Part shown: positions 30,200 to 48,666 of the stretch, piece by piece | Layout: each line of letters begins with the position of its first letter | Numbering within the stretch: position 1 is the first letter of the stretch | Made by a program: the position numbers and the translations under genes | From: FCB group bacterium | GTDB lineage: Bacteria; Fidelibacterota; Marinisomatia; SCGC-AAA003-L08; JACNLC01 | Direction of reading: 5' to 3' | DNA length: 64,000 nt | Assembly (NCBI GenBank): GCA_013152375.1 | Contig: JAADGM010000085.1 | Coordinates: 4,358 to 68,357 of the forward strand | The notes under the pieces: model-generated | What the model was told of the DNA's origin: nothing | The model's database searches: none | What the model saw: only the letters and a program-made list of their open reading frames with translations

Positions 30200-31693
30200 A
30201 TGAAAAGAATAAGATTAATGAGATCGATAATGTTATCTGCAGGGATATTTGGATTGGCATTTCTCGGCAATCCTCTGAGTGCCCAGGGCGGCATGCACGG
30301 CGGCGGTAACGGAGATGGTAACGGCGGTGGTTATATGAATGATTTCGAGATCGTCACAGTAACCGGTGTGGTTTCCATCGATGATGCTTTCAACATGGAG
30401 CGGTACTTTCTGGATACCGACGACGACGGCGCGGCAGATTATCAACTGAATTTTGGCCCTCCGGACTATCAGCCCGATAGCGGAGCAACCCGTCCCAATG
30501 ACGGTGACACGGTAACAATCACCGGTGCGGCTCAGCAAATGATGATGCTGGATTACGAAATGCTCATCGTTTACGAGATCGACGGACTGCAATGGTTCGA
30601 CCCGGAAAACGGTGACGGCTATGGTGACTGCGGTCATGATGGTGGCGGGATGAACGGAGACCTTGAAGTAATCACTGCTTCAGGGGTAGTTTCAGTCGAT
30701 GGTGAATTTGAGTACCCGAGATATTACCTGGATGAAGACGGTGACGGTGCAGCTGACTACCGACTGAATTTTGGTCCTCCCTGGTATGAACCTGATAGTG
30801 GTGCTGTCCGCCCGGAAGATGGAGATACGGTAACCATTACCGGCGGATTGGGGAACTCGATGATGGATGACCTTTCCGTGATAATGGTTTATGAATTGAA
30901 CGGACTGATCTGGATGGACCCGACAGACATGGGTGGATACGGACACGACGGCAATGGCGGCATGCATGATGGTGACCATGGCGGTCATGGTGATAACGAT
31001 GGCGACGGCAACATGCACCCGCACTGGGGTGATGGCGGCCACGGAGATTTTGAAGAAGGCTGGGGAATGCACTTTGGCCACGGAAACGGCCACGGCCACG
31101 GAGATGGTGACGGTCACCAATTCCCGGATTCGCTGGATGTTGTTACCGTCACAGGTACCGCTATTATAGAATCGCATATGGGGCACGACCAGTATTATCT
31201 GGATGAAGATGGCGATGGCACAGAAGATTATCGCCTGAATTTTGGTCCGCCTGACTATGACCCCGGTAATGGTGCCCAGAGGCCCTCTCAGGGAGACGAA
31301 ATCACGATTACAGGAGCTTTTGTAGAGATGAACATGGATGACATGATCATCGTCTTTGAGATCAACGGTCTCTGGTGGAGTGACCCCGGTGACTTCGAAG
31401 ACTGGGGGCCCATGGGTTCAGGCCAGCAGGAAAATATTGTCTCTGTGAATTGCTTCCCGAATCCCTTCAATCCGCAAACGACCATTCAATTTGTGCTGAA
31501 AGAAAATTCGAGTGTTGAAGCGGGTATTTACAATATCAATGGTCAATTAGTGCAACAAATTGCCAGCGGTTATCGTGCAGCCGGTGATTATTCCTTTACC
31601 TGGAATGCATCGGATCAACCCAGCGGCATCTACTTTGTCAAAATTGCCACTGCCTCTCAGGTCAATGTGAATCGGGTAATGCTGTTGAAGTAA
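30200..31693 (+). CDS. T9SS (Por) C-terminal-sorting-domain protein with three ~95-aa internal repeats and a His/Gly/Asp-rich tract
   Basis: Signal peptide. The repeat units begin near nt 30344, 30661 and 31133, with core Y(F/Y)LD.D.DG..DY.LNFGPP.Y.P..GA.RP..GD.(V/I)TITG. A His-rich segment sits at about 30932..31122. The C-terminal FPNPFNPQTTIQF...GIYFVKI...VMLLK is a Por secretion tail. Confidence 0.7.
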   Translation: MKRIRLMRSIMLSAGIFGLAFLGNPLSAQGGMHGGGNGDGNGGGYMNDFEIVTVTGVVSIDDAFNMERYFLDTDDDGAADYQLNFGPPDYQPDSGATRPNDGDTVTITGAAQQMMMLDYEMLIVYEIDGLQWFDPENGDGYGDCGHDGGGMNGDLEVITASGVVSVDGEFEYPRYYLDEDGDGAADYRLNFGPPWYEPDSGAVRPEDGDTVTITGGLGNSMMDDLSVIMVYELNGLIWMDPTDMGGYGHDGNGGMHDGDHGGHGDNDGDGNMHPHWGDGGHGDFEEGWGMHFGHGNGHGHGDGDGHQFPDSLDVVTVTGTAIIESHMGHDQYYLDEDGDGTEDYRLNFGPPDYDPGNGAQRPSQGDEITITGAFVEMNMDDMIIVFEINGLWWSDPGDFEDWGPMGSGQQENIVSVNCFPNPFNPQTTIQFVLKENSSVEAGIYNINGQLVQQIASGYRAAGDYSFTWNASDQPSGIYFVKIATASQVNVNRVMLLK

Positions 31694-31736
31694 AGACAGC
31701 GGCTTATGAAAGCACATTTCAAATGAGAAATGCTGA

Positions 31737-31772
31737 CAGCGAACGGGTGGAGACTGACTTCCACCCGTTCGC
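31737..31772 (+). terminator. Strong hairpin terminator after the T9SS gene
   Basis: agcgaacgggtgga / gactgact / tccacccgttcgct forms a perfect 14-bp stem. The downstream T-tract is weak (tagttaatattt). Confidence 0.6.
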
Positions 31773-31914
31773 TTAGTTAATATTTAATCAAAAGTTTATC
31801 ACGAGCAATAACGAATATGAAAAATCAAATAAAACCGGCGGAGAAAACGACTCAATCAAATTATGCCGGAACTTTAACGGTAAGAAAATCGTAATAAGGT
31901 AAAATTTTACTTGT

Positions 31915-32343
31915 TTGGTTATTGAGAACCAGTATAAATTGCGCAAAGTGAAAACAATAATTTCCATATTATCTCTGGCGATTGCCCTGAACCTCGGGTC
32001 GCAGATTACAGTCTCCTGTAATATGCCAACCTGTGCAATGCAGGATGAAATCACCTGCAGCTGCAACAACGTTGCCACTGATATGCAAATGGACGGCTGC
32101 TGTCAGCACGACATGGCCTCCAAGACGGATTCAAAAACATCTTCCCCGAAATGCAATCAAAGCAGAATTGACGGTGTTTTCGTTCCCACTTTTACCATTA
32201 CTCATGTTGATACCTACATTGGTTTCCTCACTGAAATTTCACTGTTGTCCATCGATGGACACAGTCGTATGTTCACACCACAGCCAACGAATACAACCCA
32301 CTTTAAACCCGATAAATACCTGAATCTTCCGCTCCTGATCTAA
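31915..32343 (+). CDS. Small Cys/Met-rich membrane-anchored or secreted protein, unknown function
   Basis: Hydrophobic N-terminus (KTIISILSLAIALNL), then SCNMPTCAMQDEITCSCNNVATDMQMDGCCQHDM. The track start is a TTG. An in-frame GTG at 31948 (MKTIISIL...) looks more natural. Confidence 0.4.
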   Translation: MVIENQYKLRKVKTIISILSLAIALNLGSQITVSCNMPTCAMQDEITCSCNNVATDMQMDGCCQHDMASKTDSKTSSPKCNQSRIDGVFVPTFTITHVDTYIGFLTEISLLSIDGHSRMFTPQPTNTTHFKPDKYLNLPLLI

Positions 32344-32428
32344 ACCCCATTCATTCTCCCTTCACGGGGCAGGCAATCCAGGTTGCCGCCCGGTTCCATA
32401 CTACATACACTAAACATAAGGTTACTCC

Positions 32429-33655
32429 ATGAAATTCATCGGAATGATTATTCTGATACTGGCTTTCGCCGTGTCGCAGAAATCGCCAGCAGTATATCAA
32501 GATGACCAGCTTGAAATGTTACTTCGGCTCGCCATCAAAAACAACCCCGAGATAAAGTCCCGGGAAGAAAGCGTTAGCGCATTTATCCATGAAGCAAAAT
32601 TTGCAGGGTCGCTTCCGGACCCTCAGCTGACAGCGGGGTATTTTTTTACTCCCGTTGAGACAAAGGTTGGTCCGCAGGAATGGCGGGTAGGACTGATGCA
32701 GAAATTCCCCTGGTTTGATAAACTCTCAACCAAACGGAAAGTCAGTCTCTTGAAAGCGGAGGTTGCCACGCAGCAGCTTCGCGCCAGCAAACTTAAAATC
32801 GCCCGAGAAGTTCGCACCGTATATCAGAAGTTGAGACTTCTGGCTGTAGATGATTTTATCACCCGAAAAAATCTTGAGATTTTCAAACAGGTCGAAGCTG
32901 TGATCAGAGCCAAATATACCACCGGGACAGCCCGTCAGGCCCACCTGATACAGTTGCAGGTAGAAATCCTGAAATTAGAAGATCAACTTGAAACACTGGA
33001 TGATAAGAAGATTGTCTATAAGGCGGATTTGGCGGATTATCTTGGCGGACTCGAGCTCCCCGCCCTTGATTTCGGGGACCTTGATTACTATGAGGAAGAG
33101 CTCATCGATGGCCAGGCGCTCAACTTTGATTACAACCCTGAGATGCAGATAGCCAACCTCCAGGTGGAAATTGCCCGGCGGGGTCTGCATCTGGCAAAAC
33201 TGGCCTCAATCCCTGATTTTTCCCTTGGTGTAGATTATGTTTCCCTCGGCGGAACCGCCGGAGATAACCCGCTGATGGCCAAGGCCGGGATATCATTACC
33301 CCTGTGGTTTGGTAAAAACAGTGCTTTACGGGGAAAGGCCACGGCGGTACAGCAGTCGGCTGAATACAGGCTCAGAGACACAGAGGAAAAGTATGTCGCC
33401 CGGCTCGAAGAACTTAGATTCAAATTAGAGGATCAGAGAAGGAAATTTCATTTATACGTCAATGAGCTCATTCCGCTGGCAGAGCAGTCGTATCAAACCT
33501 CAGAGGCAGCTTATCTTGGAGAGACCCTTGATTTTGCCTCGTACCTTGATGCAGAGCGTACATTGTTGAATTTACAATTGGCAGCCGCAAGGGCTCGCAG
33601 TGATTACTATATTGCCCAGGCAAAATATTTAGAGATAAACGGTTCAGAATTTTAG
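32429..33655 (+). CDS. TolC-family outer-membrane efflux protein (CzcC/CusC-like)
   Basis: 408 aa with a signal peptide. Two-fold coiled-coil/beta repeat architecture and an OEP-like C-terminus (ARSDYYIAQAKYLEI). Confidence 0.8.
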   Translation: MKFIGMIILILAFAVSQKSPAVYQDDQLEMLLRLAIKNNPEIKSREESVSAFIHEAKFAGSLPDPQLTAGYFFTPVETKVGPQEWRVGLMQKFPWFDKLSTKRKVSLLKAEVATQQLRASKLKIAREVRTVYQKLRLLAVDDFITRKNLEIFKQVEAVIRAKYTTGTARQAHLIQLQVEILKLEDQLETLDDKKIVYKADLADYLGGLELPALDFGDLDYYEEELIDGQALNFDYNPEMQIANLQVEIARRGLHLAKLASIPDFSLGVDYVSLGGTAGDNPLMAKAGISLPLWFGKNSALRGKATAVQQSAEYRLRDTEEKYVARLEELRFKLEDQRRKFHLYVNELIPLAEQSYQTSEAAYLGETLDFASYLDAERTLLNLQLAAARARSDYYIAQAKYLEINGSEF

Positions 33656-33665
33656 GAGAATATCG

Positions 33666-35606
33666 ATGAAAACTTTCAGTTTTAAAAATAAAAAAACTTT
33701 ATACATTGCCGGTCTTGTCATCCTTGCTTTTGTTGCAGGATTATGGCTGGGCAAGCCCGACAGCGCCAAAGCTGTCACGACAGAAAATGCAGCGGCAACT
33801 GAGCATGCAGGAGAGGCGGCCGGCCCTGAGTGGTGGACCTGTTCGATGCATCCTCAGATCAAATTACCCGAACCGGGCCAGTGTCCGATTTGCTTTATGG
33901 ATCTGATCCCACTGGAAACAGCGACCTCAGATGAGGGCCCCCGGGATATTGCTCTCTCTGAAGCGGCTGCCGAGTTAGCGGATGTAGCTGTGGAACCGGT
34001 TCGGCGACAGGTTGCGGAGGCTGAAATAACGCTTTCCGGAATTGTCGAGTATGATGAAACAAAATTGGCAAAAATTGCCGCCTGGGTTCCCGGCAGATTA
34101 GAACGTCTCTACGTCGATTTTACCGGTGTAGAAGTCCAAAAAGGAGATCACATGGTTGATCTTTACAGCCCCGAGCTGGTTGCCACGCGGGAAGAATTGG
34201 AACAGGCTTATTATCAACTGAAATCGGTTAAAGACAAGACCGGCACACTGTATAAAACAGTGGTTGATAATCTTGAAGCCGCCCGTGAAAAGCTGCGGCT
34301 TCTGGGGCTCGCTCCAGAGCAGATTAAAGCAATTGAACAGGGAAAAAGTGAAGAAGATGTGATCACGATATTGAGTCCCTTGTCAGGGATTGTGTTACAC
34401 AAAAATGCTGTGGAGGGTATGTATGTGAAAACGGGCACCCCTATCTACACGATTGCCGATTTGAGTCGTGTTTGGGTTACGCTGGATGTCTATGAATCGG
34501 ATATTTCCTGGCTGAAATATGGGCAGGATGTAAATTTCACGGTGGAAGCTGTCCCGAGTCAGGTCTTTCACAGCCGGATAGCCTTCATTGATCCCGTACT
34601 GGATCCCAAGACGCGCACGATAAAAGTGCGGCTGAATGTTGACAACTCCAACGGTCTGCTCAAGCCGGGAATGTTCGTAAGGGCTACGGCGTTCTCAATT
34701 CTGGATGCAAAAGGCCGGGCGGTAAACCCGGACCTGGCGGGAAAATGGATCGGCCCCATGCACCCGGATGTTGTAAAGGATGCCCCGGGCTCTTGTGATA
34801 TTTGCGGCATGCCGCTTGTAAAAGCAGAATCATTGGGAATCGTATCCATGCCGGCATCGGATAAGCTTCCCCTGATGGTTCCTGCCAGCGCAGTGCTCCT
34901 CACAGGAAAAAGAGCAGTCGTCTATGTGAAAAAACCCGGTATGGAACAACCCACTTTTGAAGGCAGGGAAGTCGTGCTCGGAACCAGGGCGGGAGATTAT
35001 TATATTGTTCATTCCGGCCTTGAAGAAGGTGAAGCTGTGGTTGTAAAAGGAAATTTCAAAATCGACAGTGCCATGCAAATTGCAGCCAAGCCCAGTATGA
35101 TGAACCCCGGCGGAGGAGGTCCGGCACCGGGTCACGGACAGCATAATATGAGCGGTATGGCTCCGGGATCGAAAGAAATGGCGGACATGCCTGCGACTGA
35201 AGCCCCTTTAAATATTCCCGAAAAATTGCTGGATGGCATCTTAATGGTCTATTTGAAACTGCAGGAGAAGCTGTCTCAGGACAATTATGATATGGCTTAT
35301 AAGAACCTGATGGAAATTCACAGATTGACCATGGGCGTACCCGGCGCTGAGTCCATCATGAAGCCAACGATGAAACCCGTATCCAATATTGTGCAGCTCA
35401 GGCAGGTTTTTGAAGAATTATCAACCGTGCTCAGGGGGGCAGCAGCTGCAGGCAGTTTTGGCGGAACCGTGTATGAAGCCTTCTGCCCCATGGCCTTTAA
35501 CAACAAGGGCGCCTACTGGCTGCAGCAGGATAAGCAGATTAAGAATCCGTATTTAGGTACAAAGATGCCGCGCTGCGGAGAAATCAAGAAAACCTTTAAA
35601 CGTTGA
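33666..35606 (+). CDS. RND efflux periplasmic adaptor (CusB/CzcB-like) with two CxxHP...CxxC metal-binding modules and a DUF3347-like C-terminal extension
   Basis: WTCSMHPQIKLPEPGQCPICFMDL (about nt 33831..33905) and GPMHPDVVKDAPGSCDICGMPLV (about nt 34751..34820). Barrel-sandwich/HlyD-like core. The extra ~150-aa C-terminus ends with CPMAF...YLGTKMPRCGE. Confidence 0.85.
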   Translation: MKTFSFKNKKTLYIAGLVILAFVAGLWLGKPDSAKAVTTENAAATEHAGEAAGPEWWTCSMHPQIKLPEPGQCPICFMDLIPLETATSDEGPRDIALSEAAAELADVAVEPVRRQVAEAEITLSGIVEYDETKLAKIAAWVPGRLERLYVDFTGVEVQKGDHMVDLYSPELVATREELEQAYYQLKSVKDKTGTLYKTVVDNLEAAREKLRLLGLAPEQIKAIEQGKSEEDVITILSPLSGIVLHKNAVEGMYVKTGTPIYTIADLSRVWVTLDVYESDISWLKYGQDVNFTVEAVPSQVFHSRIAFIDPVLDPKTRTIKVRLNVDNSNGLLKPGMFVRATAFSILDAKGRAVNPDLAGKWIGPMHPDVVKDAPGSCDICGMPLVKAESLGIVSMPASDKLPLMVPASAVLLTGKRAVVYVKKPGMEQPTFEGREVVLGTRAGDYYIVHSGLEEGEAVVVKGNFKIDSAMQIAAKPSMMNPGGGGPAPGHGQHNMSGMAPGSKEMADMPATEAPLNIPEKLLDGILMVYLKLQEKLSQDNYDMAYKNLMEIHRLTMGVPGAESIMKPTMKPVSNIVQLRQVFEELSTVLRGAAAAGSFGGTVYEAFCPMAFNNKGAYWLQQDKQIKNPYLGTKMPRCGEIKKTFKR

Positions 35607-35665
35607 CGCATCAGCTGAAGAAATTTCCTAAATGAAAACAATTCAAGACTTGAAAGAAATATAAA

Positions 35666-38600
35666 ATGCTGGATAAAATTATTAGATATTGCCTCGAAAA
35701 TAAGCTGATCGTGATCATGGTTCTCATAGGATTGATCGGCTGGGGCGCCATGGTGGCCCCCTTTGACTGGAATCTGGGCGGATTGCCCCGTAATCCGGTC
35801 CCTGTGGATGCCATCCCCGACATTGGTGAAAATCAGCAAATTGTCTTTACCAAATGGATGGGGCGTTCGCCTCAGGATGTTGAAGATCAGATCACCTATC
35901 CTCTGACCGTTGCCCTGTTGGGAATTCCGGAAGTAAAAACCATCCGCTCCTATTCCATGTTTGGATTTTCAACAATATACATCATCTTCAAGGAAGAGGC
36001 GGAATTCTACTGGACCCGCAGCAGAATTCTGGAGAAACTGAATTCACTGCCCTCGGGAACCCTGCCAATGGGGGTACAGCCGGCACTGGGACCCGATGCT
36101 ACGGCACTGGGTCAGGTATTTTGGTACACCATTGAAGGCCGCGATGAAGACGGGAAACCTGCCGGCGGGTGGGACCTTCAGGAGCTTAGATCTGTGCAGG
36201 ACTGGTATGTGCGCTATGGATTGCAGGCAGCTGATGGTGTTTCTGAAGTGGCTTCTATCGGTGGGTACGTTAAAGAGTATCAGATCGATGTGGATCCCGC
36301 AGCCATGCGCGAACACCATGTTACACTTGGCGAGATCTTCAACGCAGTTCGAAATTCAAACCTGGATGTGGGGGCTCGTACGATCGAAGTAAACCGGGTG
36401 GAATATGTTGTCAGAGGGCTGGGTTTCATCAAAGACCTGGAAGATATTGAATACACAGTTGTTAAAACCAACAACAACATTCCGCTGTACATCAAAGATG
36501 TGGCTAACGTAACGCTGGGCCCAGCTCTGCGCCGTGGTGCGCTGGACAAAGAGGGCAGCGAAGCTGTTGGTGGTGTTGTAGTTGCCAGATTCGGTGAAAA
36601 TCCTCTGTCGGTCATTAAAAATGTGAAAGCCAAGATCGAAGAATTAAATCCTGGCCTGCCCACGAAACAATTAGCTGACGGCAGAACCTCACAGTTGACC
36701 ATTGTCCCTTTTTATGACAGAACGGGTCTCATTTATGAAACCCTGGGAACCCTGAACCATGCCCTGAGAGATGAGATCCTGGTAACCTTAATTGTGGTCA
36801 TTATCATGGTGATGCATCTTAAAACATCCATCCTCATCGGCGGGCTGCTGCCCATCACGGTACTGTTCGTCTTCATCGGCATGAAGGTTTTCGGTGTTGA
36901 CGCAAATATTGTGGCCTTATCGGGGATTGCAATCGCCATCGGTACGATCGTAGATATGGGGATAGTTGTCTCGGAGAACATGTTAAAGCACCTTGACGAG
37001 GCGCAGGAGGGAGAAGACTCCCTGAATGTACTCTTCAGGGCGGCCTCCGAGGTTGGGAGCGCGGTTCTCACGGCGGTTTCCACCACGGTGGTAAGTTTTC
37101 TGCCGGTCTTCGTGATGGAAGGAGCTGAGGGGAAATTATTCCGTCCGCTGGCATACACCAAGACCTTTGCCCTGATTGCCTCGCTGGTTGTTGCCCTGAC
37201 CATCCTGCCGCTGTTTGCACACATTTTCTACACCAAGCGCATCAACAGTAAAAAATTGAGACTGGTCTTAAATGGCATCATCGTTACGGCGGGCCTTGTG
37301 CTGATGTTCAGCTTTAAATGGTGGGTTGGGTTGATCTTTATCATCATGGGTGTTTTCCCTTACGTTAAACAGCTTATGGCTGCAGGTCGGATGGGGACGC
37401 CCGGTGTTAAAATTTCAGAGAAAATCCCCTATCTGCTGAACTGGATTGTAGTGGTGATTGTAGCGGGAATATTGTCAGTTACCTGGTCGCCTCTGGGGTA
37501 TGGACGCAGCGCGTTCATTAATTTCATCTTTGTGCTGATGATCCTGGGAGTTATCATGGCGGCGATTCTCGTCTTCACACACTATTATCCGAGGATGTTG
37601 CGCTGGACGCTGGATCACAAGGTACTCACTCTGTCCGGCCCGGCCCTCTTGTTGGTGGTTGGGATGGTTTCCTGGCTGGGGTTCGGAAATGTTTTCGGTT
37701 TTCTGCCCAGATTCATGAAATCAAACAGGGTTTTCGCGGATTTGTCCCATACTTTCCCGGGGCTGGGAAAAGAATTCATGCCGGCTCTGGATGAGGGCTC
37801 CTATCTCTACATGCCCACAACCATGCCGCATGCGGGAATGGAAGAATCCCTCGATGTGCTGTCAACCCTGGACAAGGCGCTTTATTCTGTGCCAGAGGTT
37901 GACGAAGTCGTGGGTAAAATGGGTCGGGCTGAAACACCCCTGGACCCGGCACCAATTTCGATGGTGGAGACGGTCATCAGCTATAAATCGGAATATATGA
38001 CGGATAAAAACGGTAACCGCCTGCGGTTCCAGGTTGATTCAGATGGTGAGTTCGTCAGGGATGCACAGGGTGAACTGATCCCTGATCCGGACGGCAAGCC
38101 CTTCCGGCAGTGGCGCGATCATATTCGTACCGCCGATGATATCTGGGACGAGTTGGTGAAGGCAGCCAGGATTCCCGGCACGACTTCAGCGCCCAAACTG
38201 CAGCCCATTTCAGCCCGCCTGGTTATGCTCCAGAGCGGTATGCGCGCCCCCATGGGAATGAAGGTCAAAGGACCCGATCTGGAGACCATTGAGAAAGTGG
38301 GACTGCAGCTTGAAAAATATCTGAAAGAAGTCCCGGGTGTTAAATCAGAAATGGTATTTGCAGACCGGATCGTGGGCAAACCCTATCTGGAAATCGATAT
38401 CGATCGCAGGGCAATTGCCCGCTATGGGATCAAGCTGAAGCAGATGCAGGATATCATTGAAGTTGCCATCGGCGGCAAACCCATCACAACGACGGTTGAG
38501 GGCCGAGAGAGATACCCTGTCAGGGTGCGCTATATGCGCGAACTGAGAGATAATATCGAGTCTCTGAGTGACATCCTGGTTCCGGCTCCCAACGGAACGC

Positions 38601-39782: not shown

Positions 39783-39797
39783 AAAGGAGGGTAAATA

Positions 39798-40010
39798 ATG
39801 CATTCAATGAATTTGTTTGGAGGTGGTTTTATGATGGTTTTCTGGTGGGGGCTGGTCATCGTTCTCGTGCTGGCTGTATTCAGATGGTTTCAAGGCCAAA
39901 GTACGACGACACCGGGCAGAGATTCTGCTGAGGATATCCTGAAAAAAAGGTATGCGAAGGGTGAAATCTCTAAAACGGAATATGAAATCATGAAAAAAGA
40001 GCTTGAATAA
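39798..40010 (+). CDS. Small membrane protein with a SHOCT domain
   Basis: One TM helix (FMMVFWWGLVIVLVLAVF), then ILKKRYAKGEISKTEYEIMKKELE (SHOCT signature). Confidence 0.65.
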   Translation: MHSMNLFGGGFMMVFWWGLVIVLVLAVFRWFQGQSTTTPGRDSAEDILKKRYAKGEISKTEYEIMKKELE

Positions 40011-40026
40011 TCAGAGAGGATTTAAA

Positions 40027-40506: not shown

Positions 40507-40518
40507 AAAGGACTTAAA

Positions 40519-40905
40519 ATGAAATATTATTTCAAAAATACAGTGGAAAAAGATTTTGATGATACGGTAAACCGGGTTACGGAAGAACTAAAAAAAGAGG
40601 GTTTTGGTGTGTTAACTGAGATCAATGTCAAAAACACCCTTAAGGAAAAATTGGATGTAGGATTTCGGAATTATGTTATTTTGGGAGCCTGTAATCCGCC
40701 CTTTGCCTATAAGGCCCTGCAGGCAGACGATAAGATCGGCATGCTGCTGCCCTGCAATGTTATCGTGCAGGAGTTGGAGGATGGATTGACCGAGGTTGCA
40801 GCGATAGACCCGGCTACGTCCATGAGTATGATTGAAAATGCCGAGCTTGCTGAAATTGCAGATCGAGTCGGCGAAAAATTAAAATCTGTTGTTGACAGAT
40901 TATAA
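40519..40905 (+). CDS. DUF302 domain protein
   Basis: ILGACNPPFAYKAL...IGMLLPCNVIVQE is the DUF302 signature. 128 aa. Confidence 0.75.
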   Translation: MKYYFKNTVEKDFDDTVNRVTEELKKEGFGVLTEINVKNTLKEKLDVGFRNYVILGACNPPFAYKALQADDKIGMLLPCNVIVQELEDGLTEVAAIDPATSMSMIENAELAEIADRVGEKLKSVVDRL

Positions 40906-40942
40906 ACTTCATTAACCAAATACCAAATTAAAAGGAAAGGAA

Positions 40943-41830
40943 ATGGAAATGAAAACAAGAAAAGCCATAACCATCATAGGAATGTCACTGAGTTTATTGG
41001 CGGCTTTCGCCTGGGCCGGGGACGGTCACGGAAAGATGATGGGGAAAAACCAACAGGGAATGAAAATGGAAGGTGAAGGACATGCAATGATAGATTTGCC
41101 CTCCATGCAGTGTGATATGTGTAAAAACAATATCGAAACAGGTCTGTCAAAAATTCCCGGTATCAAATCAGTTGATGTTAATGTTGAGAAAAAAACGGGT
41201 CATGTAAACTACGATCCGGCAGTGATTGACGAAAGTGAGATCGAAGTTGCCATCAACAAACTGGGATACTGGGCCAATGACAAACCCGCAGACCCGAATT
41301 CTTACGATAACCTGATGGGTTGTTGTCAGATGCCGGAAGAAGAGTATAATCAAATGATGAAAAGTTCAAAAAAGATGACCATGCCTCATGACAACATGAT
41401 GAAGAAAATGATGGATCGTTCCGGGATGCAGAAAATGGAACATGAGAATATGAAGATGAGAAACCAGGACGGCATGAAGATGGGCAGCATGAAAATGGAT
41501 AATATGAAAATGGGAGACATGAAGATGGGAAATATGGACATGAAGATGGGTGATTCTTCCGGAAAGACTTCAATGACGATGATCTCACTGCCCACAGTAC
41601 AGTGTGGAAGTTGTCAGGCTAGAATCGAGTCAAATTTATCAAAAATTGACGGGATCGTTGAAGTAAAGGTTGATATAGACCGTAAAATGGGACATGTTGT
41701 CTATGACCCTGAAAAGCTCACTGTTAAATCCATTGAGAATGTAATTGCCTCCATTGGATATCAGGCGAATGACATACCGGCGGACAGCAAAGCTTACGAC
41801 AATCTGCCGGGCTGCTGCAAAGTCCCCTGA
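40943..41830 (+). CDS. Periplasmic twin-HMA (heavy-metal-associated) domain protein with a Met-rich linker
   Basis: Signal peptide. Two HMA modules carry CxxC motifs (MQCDMCKNNIE, VQCGSCQARIE). Each is followed by YDNL.GCC. The linker is MKMRNQDGMKMGSMKMDNMKMGDMKMGNMDMKMGD. Confidence 0.75.
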   Translation: MEMKTRKAITIIGMSLSLLAAFAWAGDGHGKMMGKNQQGMKMEGEGHAMIDLPSMQCDMCKNNIETGLSKIPGIKSVDVNVEKKTGHVNYDPAVIDESEIEVAINKLGYWANDKPADPNSYDNLMGCCQMPEEEYNQMMKSSKKMTMPHDNMMKKMMDRSGMQKMEHENMKMRNQDGMKMGSMKMDNMKMGDMKMGNMDMKMGDSSGKTSMTMISLPTVQCGSCQARIESNLSKIDGIVEVKVDIDRKMGHVVYDPEKLTVKSIENVIASIGYQANDIPADSKAYDNLPGCCKVP

Positions 41831-41937
41831 GGCCTTCAGCTGTTTCAGCTGATTAGGGACATTCATTTTTACGGGTTTCTCGGATTTTTCTACAGAATCC
41901 CCTGAAGGTAGTGTTGTTTGGTTAGTTGGAAAGGGAG

Positions 41938-41979
41938 CCCCTGACAGACTTTCTGGTTCCAGTCTGCGTCTGTCAGGGG
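41938..41979. repeat. Perfect 12-bp inverted repeat with an 18-nt spacer
   Basis: cccctgacagac (41938..41949) and gtctgtcagggg (41968..41979). Lies between the twin-HMA and DUF2231 genes, with no U-tract. Confidence 0.8.
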
Positions 41980-42040
41980 TAAAACAGGACTTCGCTTTGA
42001 ATTGGCGAACCGGAAAAAAGTAAAAAAGAAAGGAAATCCA

Positions 42041-42601
42041 ATGGTAAATTTACCAGGCTTAACCGGGGGTTTGAACCTGCATCCTATGGTTGTACACTTT
42101 CCCATCGTGCTGATCCTGCTGGCTGTTGTCAGTGAAATTCTGCATGTCAGTCTCAAAAATGAATTTTATGGCAGGGCCGCCGGCATTCTGCTGAACCTTG
42201 CCGCCATCAGCGCGGTGGTAGCCGTCTATTTAGGGTATCAGGCCGCCGATGCCGTGGGGCACGATTCACCCGGGCATGACCGGGTTCATGTTCACCGGGA
42301 TATCATGCTTTGGTTTACAGGTCTCACTGTGGTAATTGCGGGAATATTTCAGTTTATTAAATCCTCCCGGAAAGGATATTACCGGCTGATAGCTCTGGCC
42401 GCGGTATCTGTAATTTTGATCATAGGGGCAGACCGGGGCGCCGATCTGGTTTTCAACTATGGCGTGGGAACGCACATTAAAGAGATGAGCCAGGAGATGC
42501 CCGGGCATCATGAGGAAGGCGAAGATTCCGACCACGACGGCGATGAAGACCACGAACAGGAAGCACACGACGACGATCATTCAGACGGACACTCACATTA
42601 A
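42041..42601 (+). CDS. DUF2231-like membrane protein with an acidic/His-rich C-terminal tail
   Basis: HPMVVHFPIVLILLA signature and 4 hydrophobic segments. The tail is HHEEGEDSDHDGDEDHEQEAHDDDHSDGHSH. An ATG at 42041 preceded by aaggaaa is preferred over the track's TTG at 42002. Confidence 0.6.
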   Translation: MVNLPGLTGGLNLHPMVVHFPIVLILLAVVSEILHVSLKNEFYGRAAGILLNLAAISAVVAVYLGYQAADAVGHDSPGHDRVHVHRDIMLWFTGLTVVIAGIFQFIKSSRKGYYRLIALAAVSVILIIGADRGADLVFNYGVGTHIKEMSQEMPGHHEEGEDSDHDGDEDHEQEAHDDDHSDGHSH

Positions 42602-42735
42602 CCAACGGTGAAAAATTATACAGACATATTCCCTTCACTCACCTCGGTCCGGTCCCAAGGCACCGGAGTGCCTGAGCGGGAATTAAAAGAGGATCATCGA
42701 ATTCTCTCCAACACTCTGAAGAAAGGAGTCATCAA

Positions 42736-45354
42736 ATGAAAGATCCGGTTTGCGGAATGACCGTTGAGGAAAATGCAGCAGCGGACATTCAGGAATATAA
42801 TGGTAAAAAATACGGGTTTTGTTCTGAAAAATGTTCAACGGCATTTCGGGAGGCTCCGGAGAAATATGTCGCAGCGAACGAAGCAGAAAAGGAGCCGGCT
42901 ATGTCCCACGGGCATCACCATTCGGATGCATCGTCAACCGGACAGACAGTCAAAGACCCGGTCTGCGGCATGGTGGTAGAGCCCAAGACCGTCGCCGATT
43001 CTATTGAGCATGAGGGTAAAAGCTATTTCTTCTGCTCTCATCACTGCGCGACAGAATTTAAAAAGGATCCGGAGAAATATCTCGGGTCCGACCATCATTC
43101 GCATACTTCAACGACAGAGGATCACCCACACCAACATGCCGGTGACATCTACACCTGTCCCATGCACCCTGATGTACGTCACGAAGGGCCCGGGAGCTGT
43201 CCCCAATGCGGGATGGCTCTGGAACCACTCATTCCTGTGCAAAAGGAAACAACCCAGTACACCTGTCCCATGCATCCGGAGGTAATCCAGTCGGGACCCG
43301 GGAGCTGCCCGCTGTGCGGAATGGCCCTCGAACCCGTTACGGCGACGGAGGAGCAGGGAAATCCCGAACTAATTGACATGACCCGGCGTTTCTGGGGCGG
43401 TGTGATCTTATCGGTTCCACTGCTGTTCATTGCCATGTGGGCCATGGTGAGTCCAAGACCACTGATCCCAGGGGGCTGGCAGCCCTGGGTCGAATTAGTA
43501 CTGGCAACCCCCGTTGTGCTGTGGGCAGGATCGCCCTTTTTCGTGAGAGGCTGGGCGTCCATCCGCACCTGGAATCTGAACATGTTCACTCTGATCGCCA
43601 TCGGTACGGGTGTAGCTTACGGATACAGCCTGATCGCGACATTTTTACCGGGGATCTTTCCGGCTGCTTTCCGGTCGGCTGAAGGAACTGTGGAAGTATA
43701 TTTCGAAGCCGCGGCTGTCATCGTTACACTGGTCCTGCTTGGACAGGTGCTTGAGCTGAAAGCCCGGGACAAAACCAGCAGCGCCATCAAGGCTCTTCTG
43801 GGCCTGGCCCCGAAAACGGCCCGTATTGTCGCTGACGATAATACTGAAAAAGAAATTCCGCTTGACCAGGTACAGCCGGGTGACAGGTTAAGGGTTCGTC
43901 CCGGCGACAAAATTCCGGTGGATGGAGTCGTGCTCGAAGGAACCACGACCATCGATGAATCCATGATAACGGGTGAACCCATGGCCGTCAGCAAAAAGGC
44001 GGGTGACCCGGTGACCGGCGCGACCGTGAACGGTACCGGCAGCTTCATAATGGAAGCCAAACGGGTAGGTTCAGAGACTTTGCTGTCTCAGATCGTAAAG
44101 ATGGTGAGCGATGCTCAGCGGAGCCGTGCTCCCATACAGGGACTTGCTGATAAGGTGGCGGCCTATTTTGTACCGGCGGTGGTGGGGATCAGCGTGCTGA
44201 CTTTCATCATCTGGTCTCTGGTTGGCCCAACCCCGCGGATGGCCTATGCTCTGGTTAATGCCGTGGCGGTTCTGATCATCGCCTGTCCCTGTGCTCTGGG
44301 GCTTGCGACTCCCATGTCCATCATGGTGGGAACCGGCAAGGGAGCCATGGCCGGAGTTCTGATTAAAAATGCAGAAGCACTGGAAACGATGGAAAAGGTG
44401 GACACTCTTGTCGTAGATAAAACGGGGACCCTGACCGAAGGCAAACCCCGGGTTGTCAATATCGTGCCTTCAGCTGATTTTGTTGAAGATGATGTCTTAT
44501 CACTGGCGGCCAGTCTCGAACAAGCCAGCGAACATCCCCTGGGGGCTGCAGTCGTTACCGAAGCCGATGAGAGAGGGCTCAAAATTGTGCAGCCATCAGA
44601 TTTTCAGTCCGTTACCGGTAAGGGAATTACGGGATCAGTGGGGGAACGATCGGTTGTTATTGGGAATCAGGCCTTCATCGAAGAATTAGGCGTGGCGAAC
44701 AGTGCTTTGGAGAAAAAAGCCGATGACCTGCAGCTTAAAGGTGAGACGGTTTTGTTTGTAGCCGTGGATTGGAAACTGGCCGGACTGATCGGCGTTACCG
44801 ATCCGATTAAAAGTACCACCCGGGAGGCTCTGAAGATATTGCGCAAAGAGAAATTGCGGATTGTAATGCTGACGGGCGATAATATTAAGACCGCCCGGAT
44901 TATCGCAGATCAACTGGGCATCGATGAAATTGAGGCTGATGTCCTGCCGCAGCAGAAAAATGAAGTTGTCAAACGGCTGCAGAGCGAAGGCTGTGTGGTT
45001 GCCATGGCTGGGGACGGTATCAATGATGCTCCCGCCCTGGCTCAAGCCGATGTTGGCGTGGCCATGGGCTCGGGAACCGACGTGGCCATTGAGAGCTCCG
45101 ATATCACCCTCATCAAAGGTGACTTGAGGGGAATGGCCCGTGCCAGGCGCCTGAGCCGGGAAACCATGAAGAATATCCGGCAGAACATGTTCTGGGCGTT
45201 TTTGTACAATACTCTTGGCGTTCCGATTGCGGCGGGAATACTCTATCCCGTATTCGGATTGCTGCTGTCACCCATTCTGGCTGCGGCGGCAATGAGTTTC
45301 AGTTCAGTATCCGTTATCGGAAATGCTTTACGGCTGCGGAAGGTACAGCTCTAA
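42736..45354 (+). CDS. copA: Copper-type P1B heavy-metal-translocating ATPase
   Basis: CPC transmembrane motif ([13 protein letters not shown]), DKTGT, TGDN and GDGINDAP. The N-terminus has 2x YHS/TRASH ([18 protein letters not shown]) and 2x YTCPMHP...GPGSCP.CGMALEP modules. Confidence 0.9.
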
Positions 45355-45363
45355 AAGATCAAA

Positions 45364-45705
45364 ATGAAAAAGGACCAGCTGCAGATGACGGCGCGTATTA
45401 TGGCCTCCATGGTGGGGCTGGTCGCAATCACATCGCTGGTCCTTTTTCTTATCCAGCCCAACCGGCACAAGCACAGGATACCCCTCAAACTGCCCTCTAA
45501 AATTTATGAGATTGCCGCTAACTTTGGCTGTCCCTGCGGAGGGTGTGTGGGGGAATCTCTGGCTCAATGTGACTGCTCTACGGCAAAGGCCATTCAGCTG
45601 AAAATTAAATCGTCACTGGAAAATGGCGAGTCCGAACCTGCGGTTCTCCGTATGGTTGAAAAGCAAATCATCGAAACCCATGCTCAAAACCGGCCTCCCG
45701 GATGA
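45364..45705 (+). CDS. Membrane-anchored Cys-rich protein (CPCGGC ... CDC motif)
   Basis: One TM helix (IMASMVGLVAITSLVLFLI), then FGCPCGGCVGESLAQCDCSTAKA. It starts 10 nt after the copA stop. Confidence 0.45.
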   Translation: MKKDQLQMTARIMASMVGLVAITSLVLFLIQPNRHKHRIPLKLPSKIYEIAANFGCPCGGCVGESLAQCDCSTAKAIQLKIKSSLENGESEPAVLRMVEKQIIETHAQNRPPG

Positions 45706-45747
45706 TCCGTCATCGGAGGCTGCAAAGATGTCTTTAACACCTGTTAT

Positions 45748-46563
45748 GTGATAAGTCTTATGGATCTAAATAAAAAGGTTAAAAGAAAATTATTCTCCCC
45801 GGGAGTGATGTATCTCCTGGCGGGATTATTTGTGGGGGAATTTATCCTGCATCCCCTTACAATGGTCATTTACTGGTTTGAGTTCTACCGGCCGGTGCAT
45901 GAAAAAGTTCGCTTGCTGTATTTTATTAAAACCCGGTTTGTCGAAAGTTTTTCTCCGGAAATGCTGCCCATGAATCTGGTTTTCCTCACCCTCGGTGCCG
46001 TTCTAGGCGTCTCCGCCGGGATATTTCACCATTCTCTGGTGAAGAAAAATGCCAAAGGAGGGCGGCCCAAAAAAATAAATCATGACTTACAGACTCTGAT
46101 CGAAACGGGAGAAAATGAATCTATCGAGTTCAAATCCTCCGTTCGTTGGGATTATCAGCAGGAAAGGATCAATAAAGACCTGGAGCAAAAAATCATCATC
46201 ACCATAGCCGGGTTCATGAACCATCACGGGGGAACCCTACTCATCGGTGTGGGAGACTGTGGTGAAATACTGGGGTTGGAAAAAGATTACCTTACCCTCG
46301 CAAAGAAAAATTCAGATGGATTTGTACAATTGCTGACGGGGTTGATCTCCGCGCGACTGGGAACCAATAATTGTGCCCTGGTAAAGATATCTATGCTGAA
46401 ACGGAAGAAAAAAGAGATTTGCCGCCTGGATGTTTCGCCTGCCGTCAAACCCGTCTATGCCCGTTTCGGACAAGACGAGATCTTCTGTATCAGGGTTGGA
46501 AGTTCCACAAGAGAACTGAATGTAAGAGAGGCCTACGGATACATTCAGCAGCATTGGGCTTAG
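45748..46563 (+). CDS. Membrane-anchored AlbA_2 (Schlafen-like putative DNA-binding) domain protein
   Basis: Two N-terminal hydrophobic helices. ETGENESIEFKSS...IAGFMNHHGGTLLIGVGDCGEILGLEKDY is typical of the AlbA_2 domain. The start may be GTG 45748 or ATG 45760. Confidence 0.6.
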   Translation: MISLMDLNKKVKRKLFSPGVMYLLAGLFVGEFILHPLTMVIYWFEFYRPVHEKVRLLYFIKTRFVESFSPEMLPMNLVFLTLGAVLGVSAGIFHHSLVKKNAKGGRPKKINHDLQTLIETGENESIEFKSSVRWDYQQERINKDLEQKIIITIAGFMNHHGGTLLIGVGDCGEILGLEKDYLTLAKKNSDGFVQLLTGLISARLGTNNCALVKISMLKRKKKEICRLDVSPAVKPVYARFGQDEIFCIRVGSSTRELNVREAYGYIQQHWA

Positions 46564-46671
46564 ACCCGGGGGTTATTACCAATTGATTCTCCCCGGAGTC
46601 AGTCGGGGGATTCCAATTAATCAGATCGTTTCCGGGAAGGAAATTGATTTAGTTGTTCTGGAGGGTGATTT

Positions 46672-47166
46672 ATGTACGCATTCAGGCAGGAAAAGAAAGG
46701 TGCAGACGGCCTGAAAAGACTGCTTTCCGTCACCGTGAATTCCCCTGAGTTCAGTTTGGTTCTCTACACGTTCTTTTATCATTTTGCCTGGGAAATATTG
46801 CAGGCTCCCCTGTTTGAAAACATGGGAACCATCGATCATTGGAAAGGCACACAAATCTGCCTCAGAGCAACCATTGGAGATGTCTTAATGACGATTTTCA
46901 TCTTTGGTGCAATGGGGCTTTTATATCGGTCCCGTTTCTGGTATTTAGAGCTGACCGCAGGCAAATATTTGCTCTATATTGCTCTGGGCGAGGGGATGAC
47001 ACTTGTGTTTGAGTGGCTTGCAACAGCCCGTTGGGACCGGTGGCAATATGATCAATCAATGCCGGTTCTGCCCTTGCTGGGGACGGGTCTACTGCCCCTG
47101 CTGCAATGGCTGATCATACCCTCGGTTGTGCTTTGGCAGCTGCGCAAACAAGGCCGGGTGGCGTAA
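46672..47166 (+). CDS. Hypothetical polytopic membrane protein
   Basis: Four hydrophobic segments. I recognised no motif. Confidence 0.35.
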   Translation: MYAFRQEKKGADGLKRLLSVTVNSPEFSLVLYTFFYHFAWEILQAPLFENMGTIDHWKGTQICLRATIGDVLMTIFIFGAMGLLYRSRFWYLELTAGKYLLYIALGEGMTLVFEWLATARWDRWQYDQSMPVLPLLGTGLLPLLQWLIIPSVVLWQLRKQGRVA

Positions 47167-47318
47167 TCCCAGGGGAGAAACTCCGGCGCTGATAGGATAC
47201 GCCGAACCAAGACCCTGAATAATCCAATTGCCTGGTAGAGGTCTGCAATGGCAAATTTGCACGGACTGAAAACGGTAATTTTCCGGGTGAGGGGAATGAT
47301 TTTTATAGGAGAGCGATC

Positions 47319-47585
47319 ATGAAGGCTGTGTGGCTGGCATTCGGGACAATATTTGTGGCGGAACTGGGAGACAAGACGCAACTGGCTATTTTGGCCCTGA
47401 AAGGCAAGGGGTTTTCCGGCTGGGGAATTTTCATTGGCGCCATGCTTGCCTTTGCTCTTCTCACCGGTTTGGCCGTGTTGGTGGGTGAATGGCTGAATGC
47501 CAGGATTCCAGCAGAGTTAATTGAAAAAATAGCTGCCGCAGGATTTGTTGTCATCGGTATCCTGATGTGGTTTGAGAAAATTTAG
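47319..47585 (+). CDS. Half-size UPF0016 (GDT1/TMEM165/MneA-type) cation transporter subunit
   Basis: 88 aa with 3 hydrophobic segments and one copy of the E-x-G-D-K-T signature (AELGDKTQLA). Confidence 0.75.
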   Translation: MKAVWLAFGTIFVAELGDKTQLAILALKGKGFSGWGIFIGAMLAFALLTGLAVLVGEWLNARIPAELIEKIAAAGFVVIGILMWFEKI

Positions 47586-47723
47586 AAATCGGGTGAGGAT
47601 TCACCTATTTCAAAGAAATAAAATTTATCCCTTACTGTAAAATACAACCAAAACACTGATATGCCGGATTTGCCCCGCCCGGGGCGATTGAAGGTATTTC
47701 AGAAACAAAATGAGGAGTACACT

Positions 47724-48113
47724 ATGAAAAACATTGCTTTAATCGTCATCCTGGGACTCATCAGCTTTGCCTGTAACAAGAGCGACACCCATGCCGAAAA
47801 GGAGCAGGGTCAGATGCACGAGGAAATGGCAGATATGCAGTCACATGATTCCGGTTCAATGGGGATGATGGGTGAGGATGAACGTCTGGTTTATTACACC
47901 TGTCCCATGCCGGCCCATAAAGCGGTTCATCAGAAAGAACCTGGGAAGTGCGAACAATGCGGTATGGAACTGGTTCCTGCGGTCATCACCACAGCCGACA
48001 AAGCGGACTATTACGGATGCCCCATGGCCTCTCATAGTCAGATCCGTCATGAAGGACCCGGAAAGTGCGAAGACTGCGGCATGAAATTGATGCCCATGCG
48101 GCTGGCAAGATAA
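47724..48113 (+). CDS. Lipoprotein with two CPMxxH...GKCExCGM heavy-metal-binding modules
   Basis: Lipobox LISFAC. YYTCPMPAHKAVHQKEPGKCEQCGMELVP and YYGCPMASHSQIRHEGPGKCEDCGMKLMP. The ATG at 47724 follows gaggag; the track starts at 47661. Confidence 0.7.
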   Translation: MKNIALIVILGLISFACNKSDTHAEKEQGQMHEEMADMQSHDSGSMGMMGEDERLVYYTCPMPAHKAVHQKEPGKCEQCGMELVPAVITTADKADYYGCPMASHSQIRHEGPGKCEDCGMKLMPMRLAR

Positions 48114-48252
48114 GTCCGAGCCAAATTCCATAAATAATTAACTCCCTGCAGACGGAGTCCTTTCTGCCGGATACTCAGGAAAATCCGTGCGAGGGATCGT
48201 TTTCTCCGGAATTACTCACCTTTGGGTTATTGCTCACTACAGGAACAAAGCT

Positions 48253-48666
48253 ATGAGTGAAATATTCACAGCTGGCGTACTGGCTGAAAAAGCGGGTGTC
48301 AACAGTGAGACAATCCGATATTACGAGCGCCGGCATTTGCTGCCCACGCCGCAAAGGAGCCCGGCTGGCTACAGGCTGTATTCTGCCACGGATCTCCAAC
48401 GGCTGCATTTCATTACACGGGCCAAGCAGCACGGTTTTTCGCTCAGCGAGATTCGCGAACTCCTTGAGCTGAAGGTCTCTCCCGGTAGCAAATGTGAAGA
48501 TATCCAATCAAAAGCGGTGGAAAAAATCAGGCTTATCGATGTCAAAATCGGGGAATTGAAGAAAATCAAAAATGCCCTCATCACACTCGTGGAGAATTGC
48601 TCCGGTCCGGCTCCGGTGGATGCATGTCCCGTTATCAAAGCGTTCGATGAAGACTTACCGTACTGA
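48253..48666 (+). CDS. MerR-family metal-responsive transcriptional regulator
   Basis: N-terminal wHTH (FTAGVLAEKAGVNSETIRYYERRHLLP..R...GYRLY), a coiled-coil dimerisation helix, and a C-terminal metal loop (CSGPAPVDAC). The start is taken at Met23 of the track ORF. Confidence 0.85.
   Translation: MSEIFTAGVLAEKAGVNSETIRYYERRHLLPTPQRSPAGYRLYSATDLQRLHFITRAKQHGFSLSEIRELLELKVSPGSKCEDIQSKAVEKIRLIDVKIGELKKIKNALITLVENCSGPAPVDACPVIKAFDEDLPY

Follow-up and report, generated by a model that had tools for sequence, protein, structure and literature searches.

The window analysed here, i.e., a stretch of 64,000 nucleotides from an FCB group bacterium (GenBank assembly GCA_013152375.1, contig JAADGM010000085.1), carries at positions 30200–49110 a series of 19 consecutive plus-strand genes rich in metal-handling functions (Table 1). 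These include a tripartite RND pump (outer-membrane factor, CusB-like adaptor and CusA), a CopA-type ATPase, a probable lipoprotein with two HMBD domains, a secreted protein with two HMA domains, a MerR-family regulator and a set of accessory genes. Our results make it likely that these genes form a chromosomal cluster for the detoxification of Cu(I)/Ag(I) in a bacterium of the Marinimicrobia (Fidelibacterota, FCB-group), organised in several co-oriented transcription units. Family membership, ligand conservation, synteny and the fusion of a metal-binding unit to the adaptor are direct observations, from which we infer metal specificity, the direction of metal transfer and regulation.

Table 1. 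Genes, domains and hairpins of the metal cluster, with positions counted from the first letter of the window
Feature	Position	Strand	Evidence or remark
T9SS-sorted secreted protein, 497 aa	30200–31693	+	Por_Secre_tail E=6.5e-11
Hairpin, 15-bp stem	31738–31785		3' of the T9SS protein gene
Small secreted Cys-rich protein, 142 aa, 7 Cys	31915–32343 (start probably ~31948)	+	Directly 5' of the TolC-like gene
Outer-membrane factor, TolC/CusC-like	32429–33655	+	Pfam OEP E=8.4e-40
CusB-like RND periplasmic adaptor, 646 aa	33666–35606	+	HlyD_D23 E=1.5e-72; HMBD x2
HMBD copies of the adaptor	33831–33914, 34743–34826	+	
CusA-type heavy-metal RND pump, 1254 aa	35666–39430	+	TIGR00914 786 bits vs cut-off 701.45
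P-II-like protein	39444–39782	+	Pfam P-II E=3e-16, 60 vs 25 bits; starts 13 bp past cusA
SHOCT small membrane protein	39798–40010	+	Pfam SHOCT E=5e-8; 8-bp overlap with next gene
Big_5 Ig-like lipoprotein	40003–40506	+	Big_5 E=7e-15; lipobox LIAVGC; His/Asp/Met-rich tail 40378–40503
DUF302 protein, without signal peptide	40519–40905	+	Pfam DUF302 E=1e-24
Secreted 2xHMA protein, Met-rich linker ~41324–41557	40943–41830	+	HMA x2 E=1.5e-26; signal peptide
Hairpin CCCCTGACAGAC-N18-GTCTGTCAGGGG, 12-bp arms, without U-tail	41938–41979	+	Between the 2xHMA and DUF2231 genes
DUF2231 membrane protein, acidic His-rich tail 42509–42598	42002–42601	+	Pfam DUF2231 E=1.5e-13
P1B-1 Cu(I)/Ag(I) ATPase, CopA	42736–45354	+	TIGR01511 610.5 bits vs cut-off 397
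N-terminal YHS/TRASH units of CopA	42736–42873, 42949–43086	+	Pfam YHS x2
HMBD copies of CopA	43147–43230, 43252–43341	+	
Membrane-anchored Cys-rich protein, 113 aa, C-x-C-G-G-C...C-x-C	45364–45705	+	9 bp past copA; divergent CcmH-like
Membrane-anchored AlbA_2/Schlafen protein	45748–46563	+	SLFN_AlbA_2 E=3.6e-14; among relatives only in L001, L002, L003
Hydrophobic 164-aa protein	46672–47166	+	No family match; weakly conserved
Half-size GDT1/UPF0016 membrane protein, 88 aa	47319–47585	+	Pfam GDT1 E=1e-21, 77 bits
Probable lipoprotein, 150 aa, two PMxxH-subtype HMBD	47661–48113 (probable start 47721)	+	HMBD x2 E=1.2e-17
HMBD copies of the lipoprotein	47889–47981, 48006–48098	+	
MerR-family metal-sensing regulator, three Cys (helix Cys and C-x8-C)	48187–48666 (probable start 48253)	+	MerR_1, MerR-DNA-bind; 9 bp 5' of rnhA
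RNase HI (rnhA)	48676–49110	+	Last gene of 19

The HMBD module, the two pumps and the candidate chaperones

The small Cys/Met module that recurs along the cluster corresponds to Pfam HMBD (PF19335), two stretches of which were detected in the adaptor (61.8 bits), in CopA (86.6 bits) and in the 150-aa lipoprotein (64.0 bits), for a gathering cut-off of 23.6. Indeed, a hidden Markov model (HMM) of our own, built from 129 module instances and run with filters off on all open reading frames (ORFs) of the window, found exactly six copies (independent E-values, i-E, of 1e-14 to 1e-17), the next match having an i-E of 0.8, and this six-copy recurrence is not due to chance. The count of six, with two copies each in the adaptor, the CopA N-terminus and the free lipoprotein, agrees with an earlier note made on this DNA from its letters alone, whereas the four protein contexts proposed in that note come down to three host proteins (four only if the N-terminal and internal sites of the adaptor are split). 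Likewise, the one or two residues that its pattern placed between Met and His are present in the two lipoprotein copies, whereas the other four copies have none there.

Matches to PDB entries 8OVL and 3RFU, i.e., the N-terminus of Legionella pneumophila CopA (LpCopA), were obtained for the lipoprotein as well as for the adaptor, with an E-value of 3.6e-5 for the lipoprotein on 8OVL. In the alignment to 8OVL, the positions M44, C59 and M61 of LpCopA are kept in all six copies (as ..M(H)...C-x-x-C-[GF]-M) and the C42 position in five, the second, internal copy of the adaptor (IGPMHP...CDICGM) missing this first Cys and having Gly instead. The metal-binding core of LpCopA, solved by nuclear magnetic resonance (8OVL), is a three-stranded rubredoxin knuckle that binds Ag(I), and presumably also Cu(I), via M44, C59 and M61, while C42, H45 and C56 are the counterparts of ligands in related zinc-binding folds; its authors propose a sensing/autoregulatory role in the ATPase and a likeness to the N-terminal metal site of SilB (PMC11970713). 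The repeated module is thus an already catalogued and structurally solved domain and not a new one. As in LpCopA, the motif C-P-M-H...C-x-x-C-G-M belongs here to the N-terminal part of a Cu(I)-transporting ATPase. In contrast, the domain is doubled in the CopA of the window, with two YHS units ahead of it, it carries a 2-residue insertion (PMxxH) in the lipoprotein copies, and it is also found in a periplasmic adaptor and a lipoprotein, where a role in ATPase autoinhibition or sensing cannot apply.

Concerning the pumps, the CopA signature is complete (CPC517, DKTGT561, N-x6-YN-x4-P at 817 and M-x2-SS-x5-N at 853), and the CusA Met triad M573/M623/M672 is kept as LYMPT, ISMVE and LVMLQ in the alignment to 3T51; taken together, the P1B-1 motifs and the triad suggest that both pumps are directed to monovalent Cu/Ag. 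Among PDB structures, the best match of the RND pump is E. coli CusA (7e-186), the Zn pump ZneA reaching 6e-120. Note that the protein contains, relative to E. coli CusA, an insertion of ~170 aa with hydrophobic helix-like segments (residues ~528–699; 37247–37765) and a second one of ~36 aa (residues 775–810), and that the resulting split alignment was seen in all Marinimicrobia homologues.

The adaptor passed the generic RND_mfp model (TIGR01730, 137 vs cut-off 94.9) and missed the CusB subfamily model of NCBIfam (NF007303, 128 vs 390 bits), and it is therefore filed as CusB-like and not as CusB. Its residues 55–82 (EWWTCSMHPQIKLPEPGQCPICFMDLIP) are aligned by phmmer to residues 43–70 of E. 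coli CusB (LFWYDPMYPNTRFDKPGKSPFMDMDLVP), so that M61, C76 and M78 fall on M49, M64 and M66, with Cys in place of Met for one ligand; the first HMBD thus corresponds, in a version with Cys, to the Cu(I)/Ag(I) site at the N-terminus of CusB. A CusB with Cys at the M64 position is reported for the flavobacterium Bizionia, where CusF is absent (PMC11213822). The C-terminal extension of the adaptor (~170 aa, residues 479–646; 35100–35603) ends with FCPMAF...NPYLGTKMPRCGE, and the Cys/Met pair closing it could be a seventh metal site. A DUF3347-like nature of this tail (CPMAF...MPRCGE) was considered and is not claimed, since no Pfam match was obtained even at E<=10.

Two proteins are candidates for metal delivery in the periplasm. 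The first is the tandem-HMBD lipoprotein, which has a Met/His-rich N-terminal linker and whose free homologues are always located beside an HMBD-type cusCBA, even without copA close by. Moreover, inspection of ORFs in four related loci (L005, L006, L013 and L014) revealed that a PMxxH-type tandem pair forms there a C-terminal extension of the adaptor itself, and this fusion is the strongest evidence that the tandem-HMBD unit works with the RND pump. Considering this fusion together with the synteny, we propose that the lipoprotein may chaperone Cu(I)/Ag(I) to the adaptor within the periplasm, as a CusF-like partner. It should be noticed that tblastn matches between cusB and cusA in these four loci had first resembled a free HMBD gene in the cusF slot, a candidate that was rejected as the ORFs show adaptor C-terminal extensions. 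In three of them (L005, 1770–3614; L006, 4400–6187; L013, 4291–6114), the adaptor contains a Cys-type HMBD (YSCGMHP...CPICGM), directly after it a Met-type, CusB-like site (YWRAPMDP...KSPMGMDLIP), and two further HMBDs at the C-terminus, both site versions being present in one protein.

A comparable arrangement is provided by the SilB adaptor of Cupriavidus metallidurans, in which a metal site at the N-terminus is combined with a CusF-like chaperone domain at the C-terminus (cited in PMC11970713). As in Marinimicrobia, a chaperone-type metal-binding domain may be fused to the adaptor C-terminus or stand apart, and the N-terminal site likewise has a rubredoxin-knuckle-like S3 geometry. However, the Marinimicrobia unit, fused or free, is a tandem HMBD pair and not a CusF OB (oligonucleotide/oligosaccharide-binding) fold, and in the window it belongs to a lipoprotein with a gene of its own, located 8 kb downstream of the pump. 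The second candidate is the 2xHMA protein, with 38 Met in 295 aa and NCBIfam matches of the CopZ, MerP and MerTP types. CusF itself had no match in any of the 19 cluster proteins (Pfam, NCBIfam); the sole OB folds of the cluster are the repeats of the T9SS (type IX secretion system) protein, which do not show the His/Met/Met/Trp pattern of CusF.

Gene neighbourhoods, accessory genes and transcription units

A scan with CopA of one genome per species yielded 80 loci (19 Marinimicrobia-like and 61 others), the closest of which belong to metagenome-assembled genomes of Candidatus Neomarinimicrobiota/Fidelibacterota. The earlier note had made its reading depend on the conservation of gene neighbourhoods in relatives, and these were found conserved in L001/L081, L002 and L082. 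Indeed, L001/L081 (CopA 93% identical) display the same gene order from the PlsY, DapF, GNAT and EamA flank via the tetratricopeptide repeat (TPR), dockerin and T9SS genes to RNase H; the order is kept from CusA through AlbA_2 in L002 (10-kb contig, CopA 78% identical) and from the TPR gene through CusA in L082. Distant Marinimicrobia loci (CopA 61–67% identical) contain the same families in shuffled order and, as an example, L004 has 8 of 9 accessory families at no more than 10 kb from copA. In Ignavibacterium (L086), the series reads CusB (2 HMBD), CusA, YHS, P-II, DUF2231, SHOCT, P-type ATPase, T9SS homologue and T9SS multicopper oxidase.

Counted with phmmer at E<=1e-3, and as lower bounds given the many short contigs, the families were present in at least the following numbers of Marinimicrobia-like (of 19) versus other (of 61) loci: P-II 9 vs 0 (as a neighbour of cusA, which it also is in L086), the 113-aa Cys-rich protein 10 vs 0 (near copA and mostly just downstream of it), DUF2231 10 vs 2, DUF302 7 vs 1, tandem HMBD 7 vs 0, Big_5-His 6 vs 0, SHOCT 6 vs 4 and GDT1 4 vs 0. 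The regulator, AlbA_2, the 164-aa protein and the T9SS protein showed no consistent linkage to the cluster in relatives. Composition, suggested earlier as a check for horizontal origin, does not indicate a recent transfer: the cluster resembles the backbone (tetranucleotide r=0.94; GC content of 0.492 vs 0.502), it is flanked by housekeeping genes that L081 has as well, and no integrase or transposase was found. A horizontal origin was rejected on these grounds. The most deviant composition in the window was observed at 19000–25000 (GC 0.40–0.45, tetranucleotide r=0.77 to the backbone), a segment whose minus-strand genes encode a CysK-like pyridoxal-phosphate enzyme and a sulfite/nitrite reductase that has ferredoxin domains. 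Should the window contain foreign DNA at all, this segment would be the candidate and not the metal cluster.

Among the accessory genes, every family named in the earlier note (P-II, SHOCT, DUF302, DUF2231, AlbA_2 and GDT1/UPF0016) was recovered with Pfam, and the two YHS units, the two HMA units, the Met-rich linker and the two small Cys-rich proteins were also found again. Of its three His-rich tails, those at ~40378 and ~42509 stand, whereas the one at 30932 is an interdomain linker and not a tail. The P-II-like protein would be of the PII-NG type, as judged by its P-II family and HME-RND (heavy-metal-efflux RND) adjacency. A linkage of PII-NG genes to czc/HME-RND operons is known (Sant'Anna et al. 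2009, cited in PMC7726332), and here too a P-II-family gene lies directly beside an RND pump gene; however, its place is behind cusA and not at the head of the operon, and its host is an FCB-group bacterium. The Big_5 lipoprotein has a weak CopC match (E=0.004), and the DUF2231 gene probably starts at ATG 42041, which is kept in L001 and L002.

The 113-aa Cys-rich protein remains under the Pfam CcmH cut-off (E=0.0018, 18 bits, cut-off 25), whereas its relatives P0130, P0138, P0145 and P0166 reach 32–37 bits. An exhaustive HMMER search for this Cys-rich domain (F-x-C-x-C-G-x-C-x5-L-x2-C-x-C) gave 78 representative clusters (proteins P0130–P0205), most of which are 200–330 aa long with N-terminal zinc ribbons, one transmembrane helix and two CcmH-like domains. 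The half-size GDT1 protein contains one E-x-G-D-K-T repeat and not two, without a second paired gene, and would have to act as a homodimer. Its copies, found near copA in L003 (3797–4060), L004 (16866–17129) and L009 (6673–6807), show an unusually high conservation, with 74–78% identity where CopA is only ~65% identical. GDT1/UPF0016 is a Mn/Ca transporter family, represented here by a single-repeat member in a copper cluster. The 164-aa protein was found among relatives only in L001, in two high-scoring segment pairs, and as a weak match in L022; its L001 orthologue (14011–14491) is split in two overlapping tblastn segments of 59–65% identity, which suggests a frameshift or gene decay. For the 142-aa Cys-rich protein, no match was obtained in Pfam or NCBIfam, and a counterpart is found at this place in L081 (88% identity) and L082, with a weak one in L087.

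The T9SS protein carries a type A sorting domain (PF18962 42.8 vs 27 bits; TIGR04183 42.7 vs 23) and three OB-fold repeats (~30335–30610, ~30647–30919 and ~31121–31384), with a His/Gly/Asp-rich linker at 30932–31123. For one repeat, modelled by AlphaFold2 (AF2) with a pLDDT of 91, the top Foldseek matches were all OB folds (TM-scores of 0.5–0.59). Its family counts 750 homologues of ~500 aa in FCB phyla, with a faint MamS_MamX match in precomputed Pfam; the members have two or three OB repeats, an invariant YYLDxDxDG...LNFGPxWYxP...RPxxGD motif and His/Gly-rich low-complexity linkers. A role as a CusF-like OB chaperone was considered and rejected: the invariant residues are structural (DxDxDG-like loop, FGP, RP and W), and homologues also exist without metal genes nearby. 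It lies beside copper genes in L081, L082, L086, L013 and L055 and not in L084 and L085, and its membership in the metal cluster is uncertain. Note that it ends a three-gene unit (27348–31693) made of a ~520-aa TPR protein, a ~356-aa dockerin secreted protein and the OB-repeat T9SS protein, which was found in four contigs, i.e., in the window, L081 (3919–8220), L082 (6925–11441) and L084 (4676–8919, without adjacent metal genes).

Regarding gene organisation, the ORF map bears out that the genes between 30200 and 49110 all share the plus strand and are separated by short gaps, intergenic distances ranging from -8 to 221 bp. Minus-strand ORFs of this interval were read as shadow ORFs because each overlaps a plus-strand gene with a strong family match. 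However, the co-directional run starts upstream of the cluster (at 25061) and the whole window is ~80% plus strand with a positive GC skew, so that strand uniformity belongs to this stretch of chromosome and not to the cluster. At least six gaps exceed 100 bp within the cluster, and two hairpins lie between genes. For the hairpin at 41938–41979, the surrounding intergenic region (41831–42040) aligns to L001 (9091–9325) with few mismatches and has its counterpart in L002 (5090–5288), in which the stem shows one compensatory change (A-T to G-C); its fold z-score is -3.3. This hairpin, which probably separates two transcription units, may serve as a terminator, as an operator or as a regulatory RNA acting in cis. 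Rfam gave no match in the whole window at gathering thresholds, nor in 41700–42800 at permissive thresholds.

A scan of 29900–49300 for sigma-70 promoters and intrinsic terminators returned counts no higher than in shuffled controls and was thus uninformative, so that the operon boundaries rest on the gaps and the two hairpins only; these argue that the cluster would consist of several transcription units and not of a single operon. No MerR-type long-spacer promoter was found in the intergenic regions, and the shared 10-12-mers CCTGACAGAC, CGAGGGATCG and CGTTTTCTCCG are near chance expectation for ~1.7 kb of spacer. The 10-mer CCTGACAGAC of the 41831–42040 region recurs at 30147, 53 nt 5' of the first gene.

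Alternative readings and the MerR-family regulator

Several observations weigh against a Cu(I)/Ag(I) detoxification cluster. The adaptor does not reach the CusB cut-off of NCBIfam; the two hairpins and the long gaps favour several independent transcription units; neither a common operator nor a common promoter was found when the intergenic regions were searched; the accessory gene order is shuffled among relatives; and the contrast in co-occurrence between Marinimicrobia and other loci is confounded by phylogeny. In addition, the regulator resembles a MerR of the Hg/Pb type, its best PDB match being Hg-MerR (4UA1, 8.5e-29, vs ~4e-18 for CueR), and this gene is absent from most related loci, L001 being the only relative in which it was found.

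Part of these observations would also fit a simpler situation, in which independent metal-resistance genes and unrelated genes stand side by side on the leading strand, without any relay beyond each pump alone. Besides the separate transcription units, the shuffled accessory order and the lack of a common operator, such a reading accommodates promoter and terminator counts not above shuffled controls, a window that is mostly plus strand anyway, AlbA_2, 164-aa protein, MerR and RNase H genes that are not conserved partners, and a T9SS protein found without metal genes in L084 and L085. Nevertheless, we regard it as unlikely, as the family set recurs near copA at 61–67% CopA identity and in another phylum, the tandem HMBD is fused to the adaptor in four loci, the CcmH-like gene lies just past copA in most of the 10 loci having it, and P-II follows cusA in 9 loci.

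The regulator raises the question of which metal is handled. CueR is characterised by a two-Cys C-x7-C loop and by Ser at the helix position. The regulator of the window is not a CueR, with Cys at this helix position, a C-x8-C loop and a score under the cut-off (TIGR02044, 107.7 vs 147.4); it also misses the MerR equivalog (TIGR02051, 125.6 vs 150.85) and, more generally, all such cut-offs, although its three Cys align to the Hg ligands of 4UA1 and 5CRL. These Cys, together with the C-x8-C loop, would point to a cluster for a thiophilic divalent metal (Hg, Cd, Pb or Zn) instead of Cu(I)/Ag(I), as would the matches of the 2xHMA protein to MerP and MerTP models and the ability of the LpCopA HMBD to bind Hg(II), its fold relatives binding Zn (PMC11970713). 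However, we hold this to be quite improbable: CopA has P1B-1 motifs and no P1B-2 signature, CusA keeps its Met triad and matches CusA far better than ZneA, neither MerA, MerT nor MerB was found with Pfam among the cluster proteins, and the regulator, which lies outside the conserved set, stays under the MerR, ZntR and CadR equivalog cut-offs. Finally, a cluster that mainly supplies or buffers copper for envelope cuproenzymes (homeostasis and maturation) and not resistance could be imagined from the many low-capacity binding proteins (HMA, HMBD, His-rich tails), the CcmH-like thiol protein adjoining copA and the T9SS multicopper oxidase within the Ignavibacterium cluster, but it has very little likelihood, considering that the window shows no gene for a cuproenzyme within the cluster or next to it, that the full tripartite efflux pump is its largest component and that the CopA N-terminal architecture matches the exporter LpCopA.

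The cluster and known copper export systems

In the favoured reading as a Cu(I)/Ag(I) detoxification cluster, CopA would pump Cu(I) from the cytoplasm to the periplasm, and its N-terminal YHS and HMBD units may be cytosolic metal sensors or regulators, by analogy with the homologous Legionella CopA domain. Given that CusF is absent, periplasmic Cu(I)/Ag(I) would be captured by the tandem-HMBD lipoprotein and by the secreted 2xHMA/Met-rich protein, and would then reach the adaptor through an exchange among like sites. The N-terminal HMBD of the adaptor would accept the metal and load or activate CusA, and the CusC/CusB/CusA-type pump, with CusC as the exit duct, would drive Cu(I)/Ag(I) out of the periplasm and across the outer membrane. 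The P-II-like, DUF2231-His, Big_5-His, DUF302, SHOCT, CcmH-like and half-GDT1 proteins may form a lineage-conserved accessory set, with buffering, sensing and thiol repair as candidate roles.

In E. coli, metal transfer from CopA to CusF and from CusF to CusB is established, and the structures of CusA and CusB are solved. Compared with this Cue/Cus system, the window likewise contains a P1B-1 ATPase and a tripartite HME-RND pump with the CusA Met triad kept, a three-ligand site at the homologous N-terminal position of the adaptor, and a MerR-family regulator nearby. In contrast, the CusF OB-fold chaperone, CusRS and CueO are missing here, and the adaptor, into which a second HMBD is inserted, has its site (M/C/M) within an HMBD that contains Cys. 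Moreover, the candidate chaperones are a tandem-HMBD lipoprotein and a periplasmic 2xHMA protein, copA and the cus genes are grouped in one cluster with about nine accessory genes, and the regulator is not CueR-like. The earlier note had proposed a coordinated metal relay across the envelope rather than independent genes; the linkage it supposed is borne out by synteny and by the adaptor fusion, whereas the genes would not form a single unit. Such a relay is essentially the established scheme from CopA to a chaperone, CusB and CusA, with a known alternative domain, and not a new principle; similarly, the cluster represents a known kind of system in well-preserved form and not a new kind.

A broader view, which we put forward only tentatively and consider rather doubtful, is that FCB bacteria (Marinimicrobia, Ignavibacteria and probably Bacteroidota) use a distinct version of Cu/Ag export, with an HMBD at every hand-over and a necessary accessory set. 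The HMBD would then be at once the cytosolic sensor of CopA, the free or adaptor-fused chaperone replacing CusF and the acceptor of the adaptor; the metal would cross the envelope by exchange between like domains, and the accessory set would contribute, e.g., thiol repair and buffering.

Altogether, the window provides a complete syntenic example of Cu/Ag defence in an abundant uncultured marine phylum (Marinimicrobia/SAR406), in which the LpCopA core, the N-terminal site of E. coli CusB and the periplasmic tandem-HMBD lipoproteins are tied together by homology and gene fusion. It singles out a number of conserved accessory genes (CcmH-like Cys-rich, DUF2231, DUF302, P-II and half-GDT1) and offers a testable hypothesis on how CusF may be replaced in FCB bacteria.

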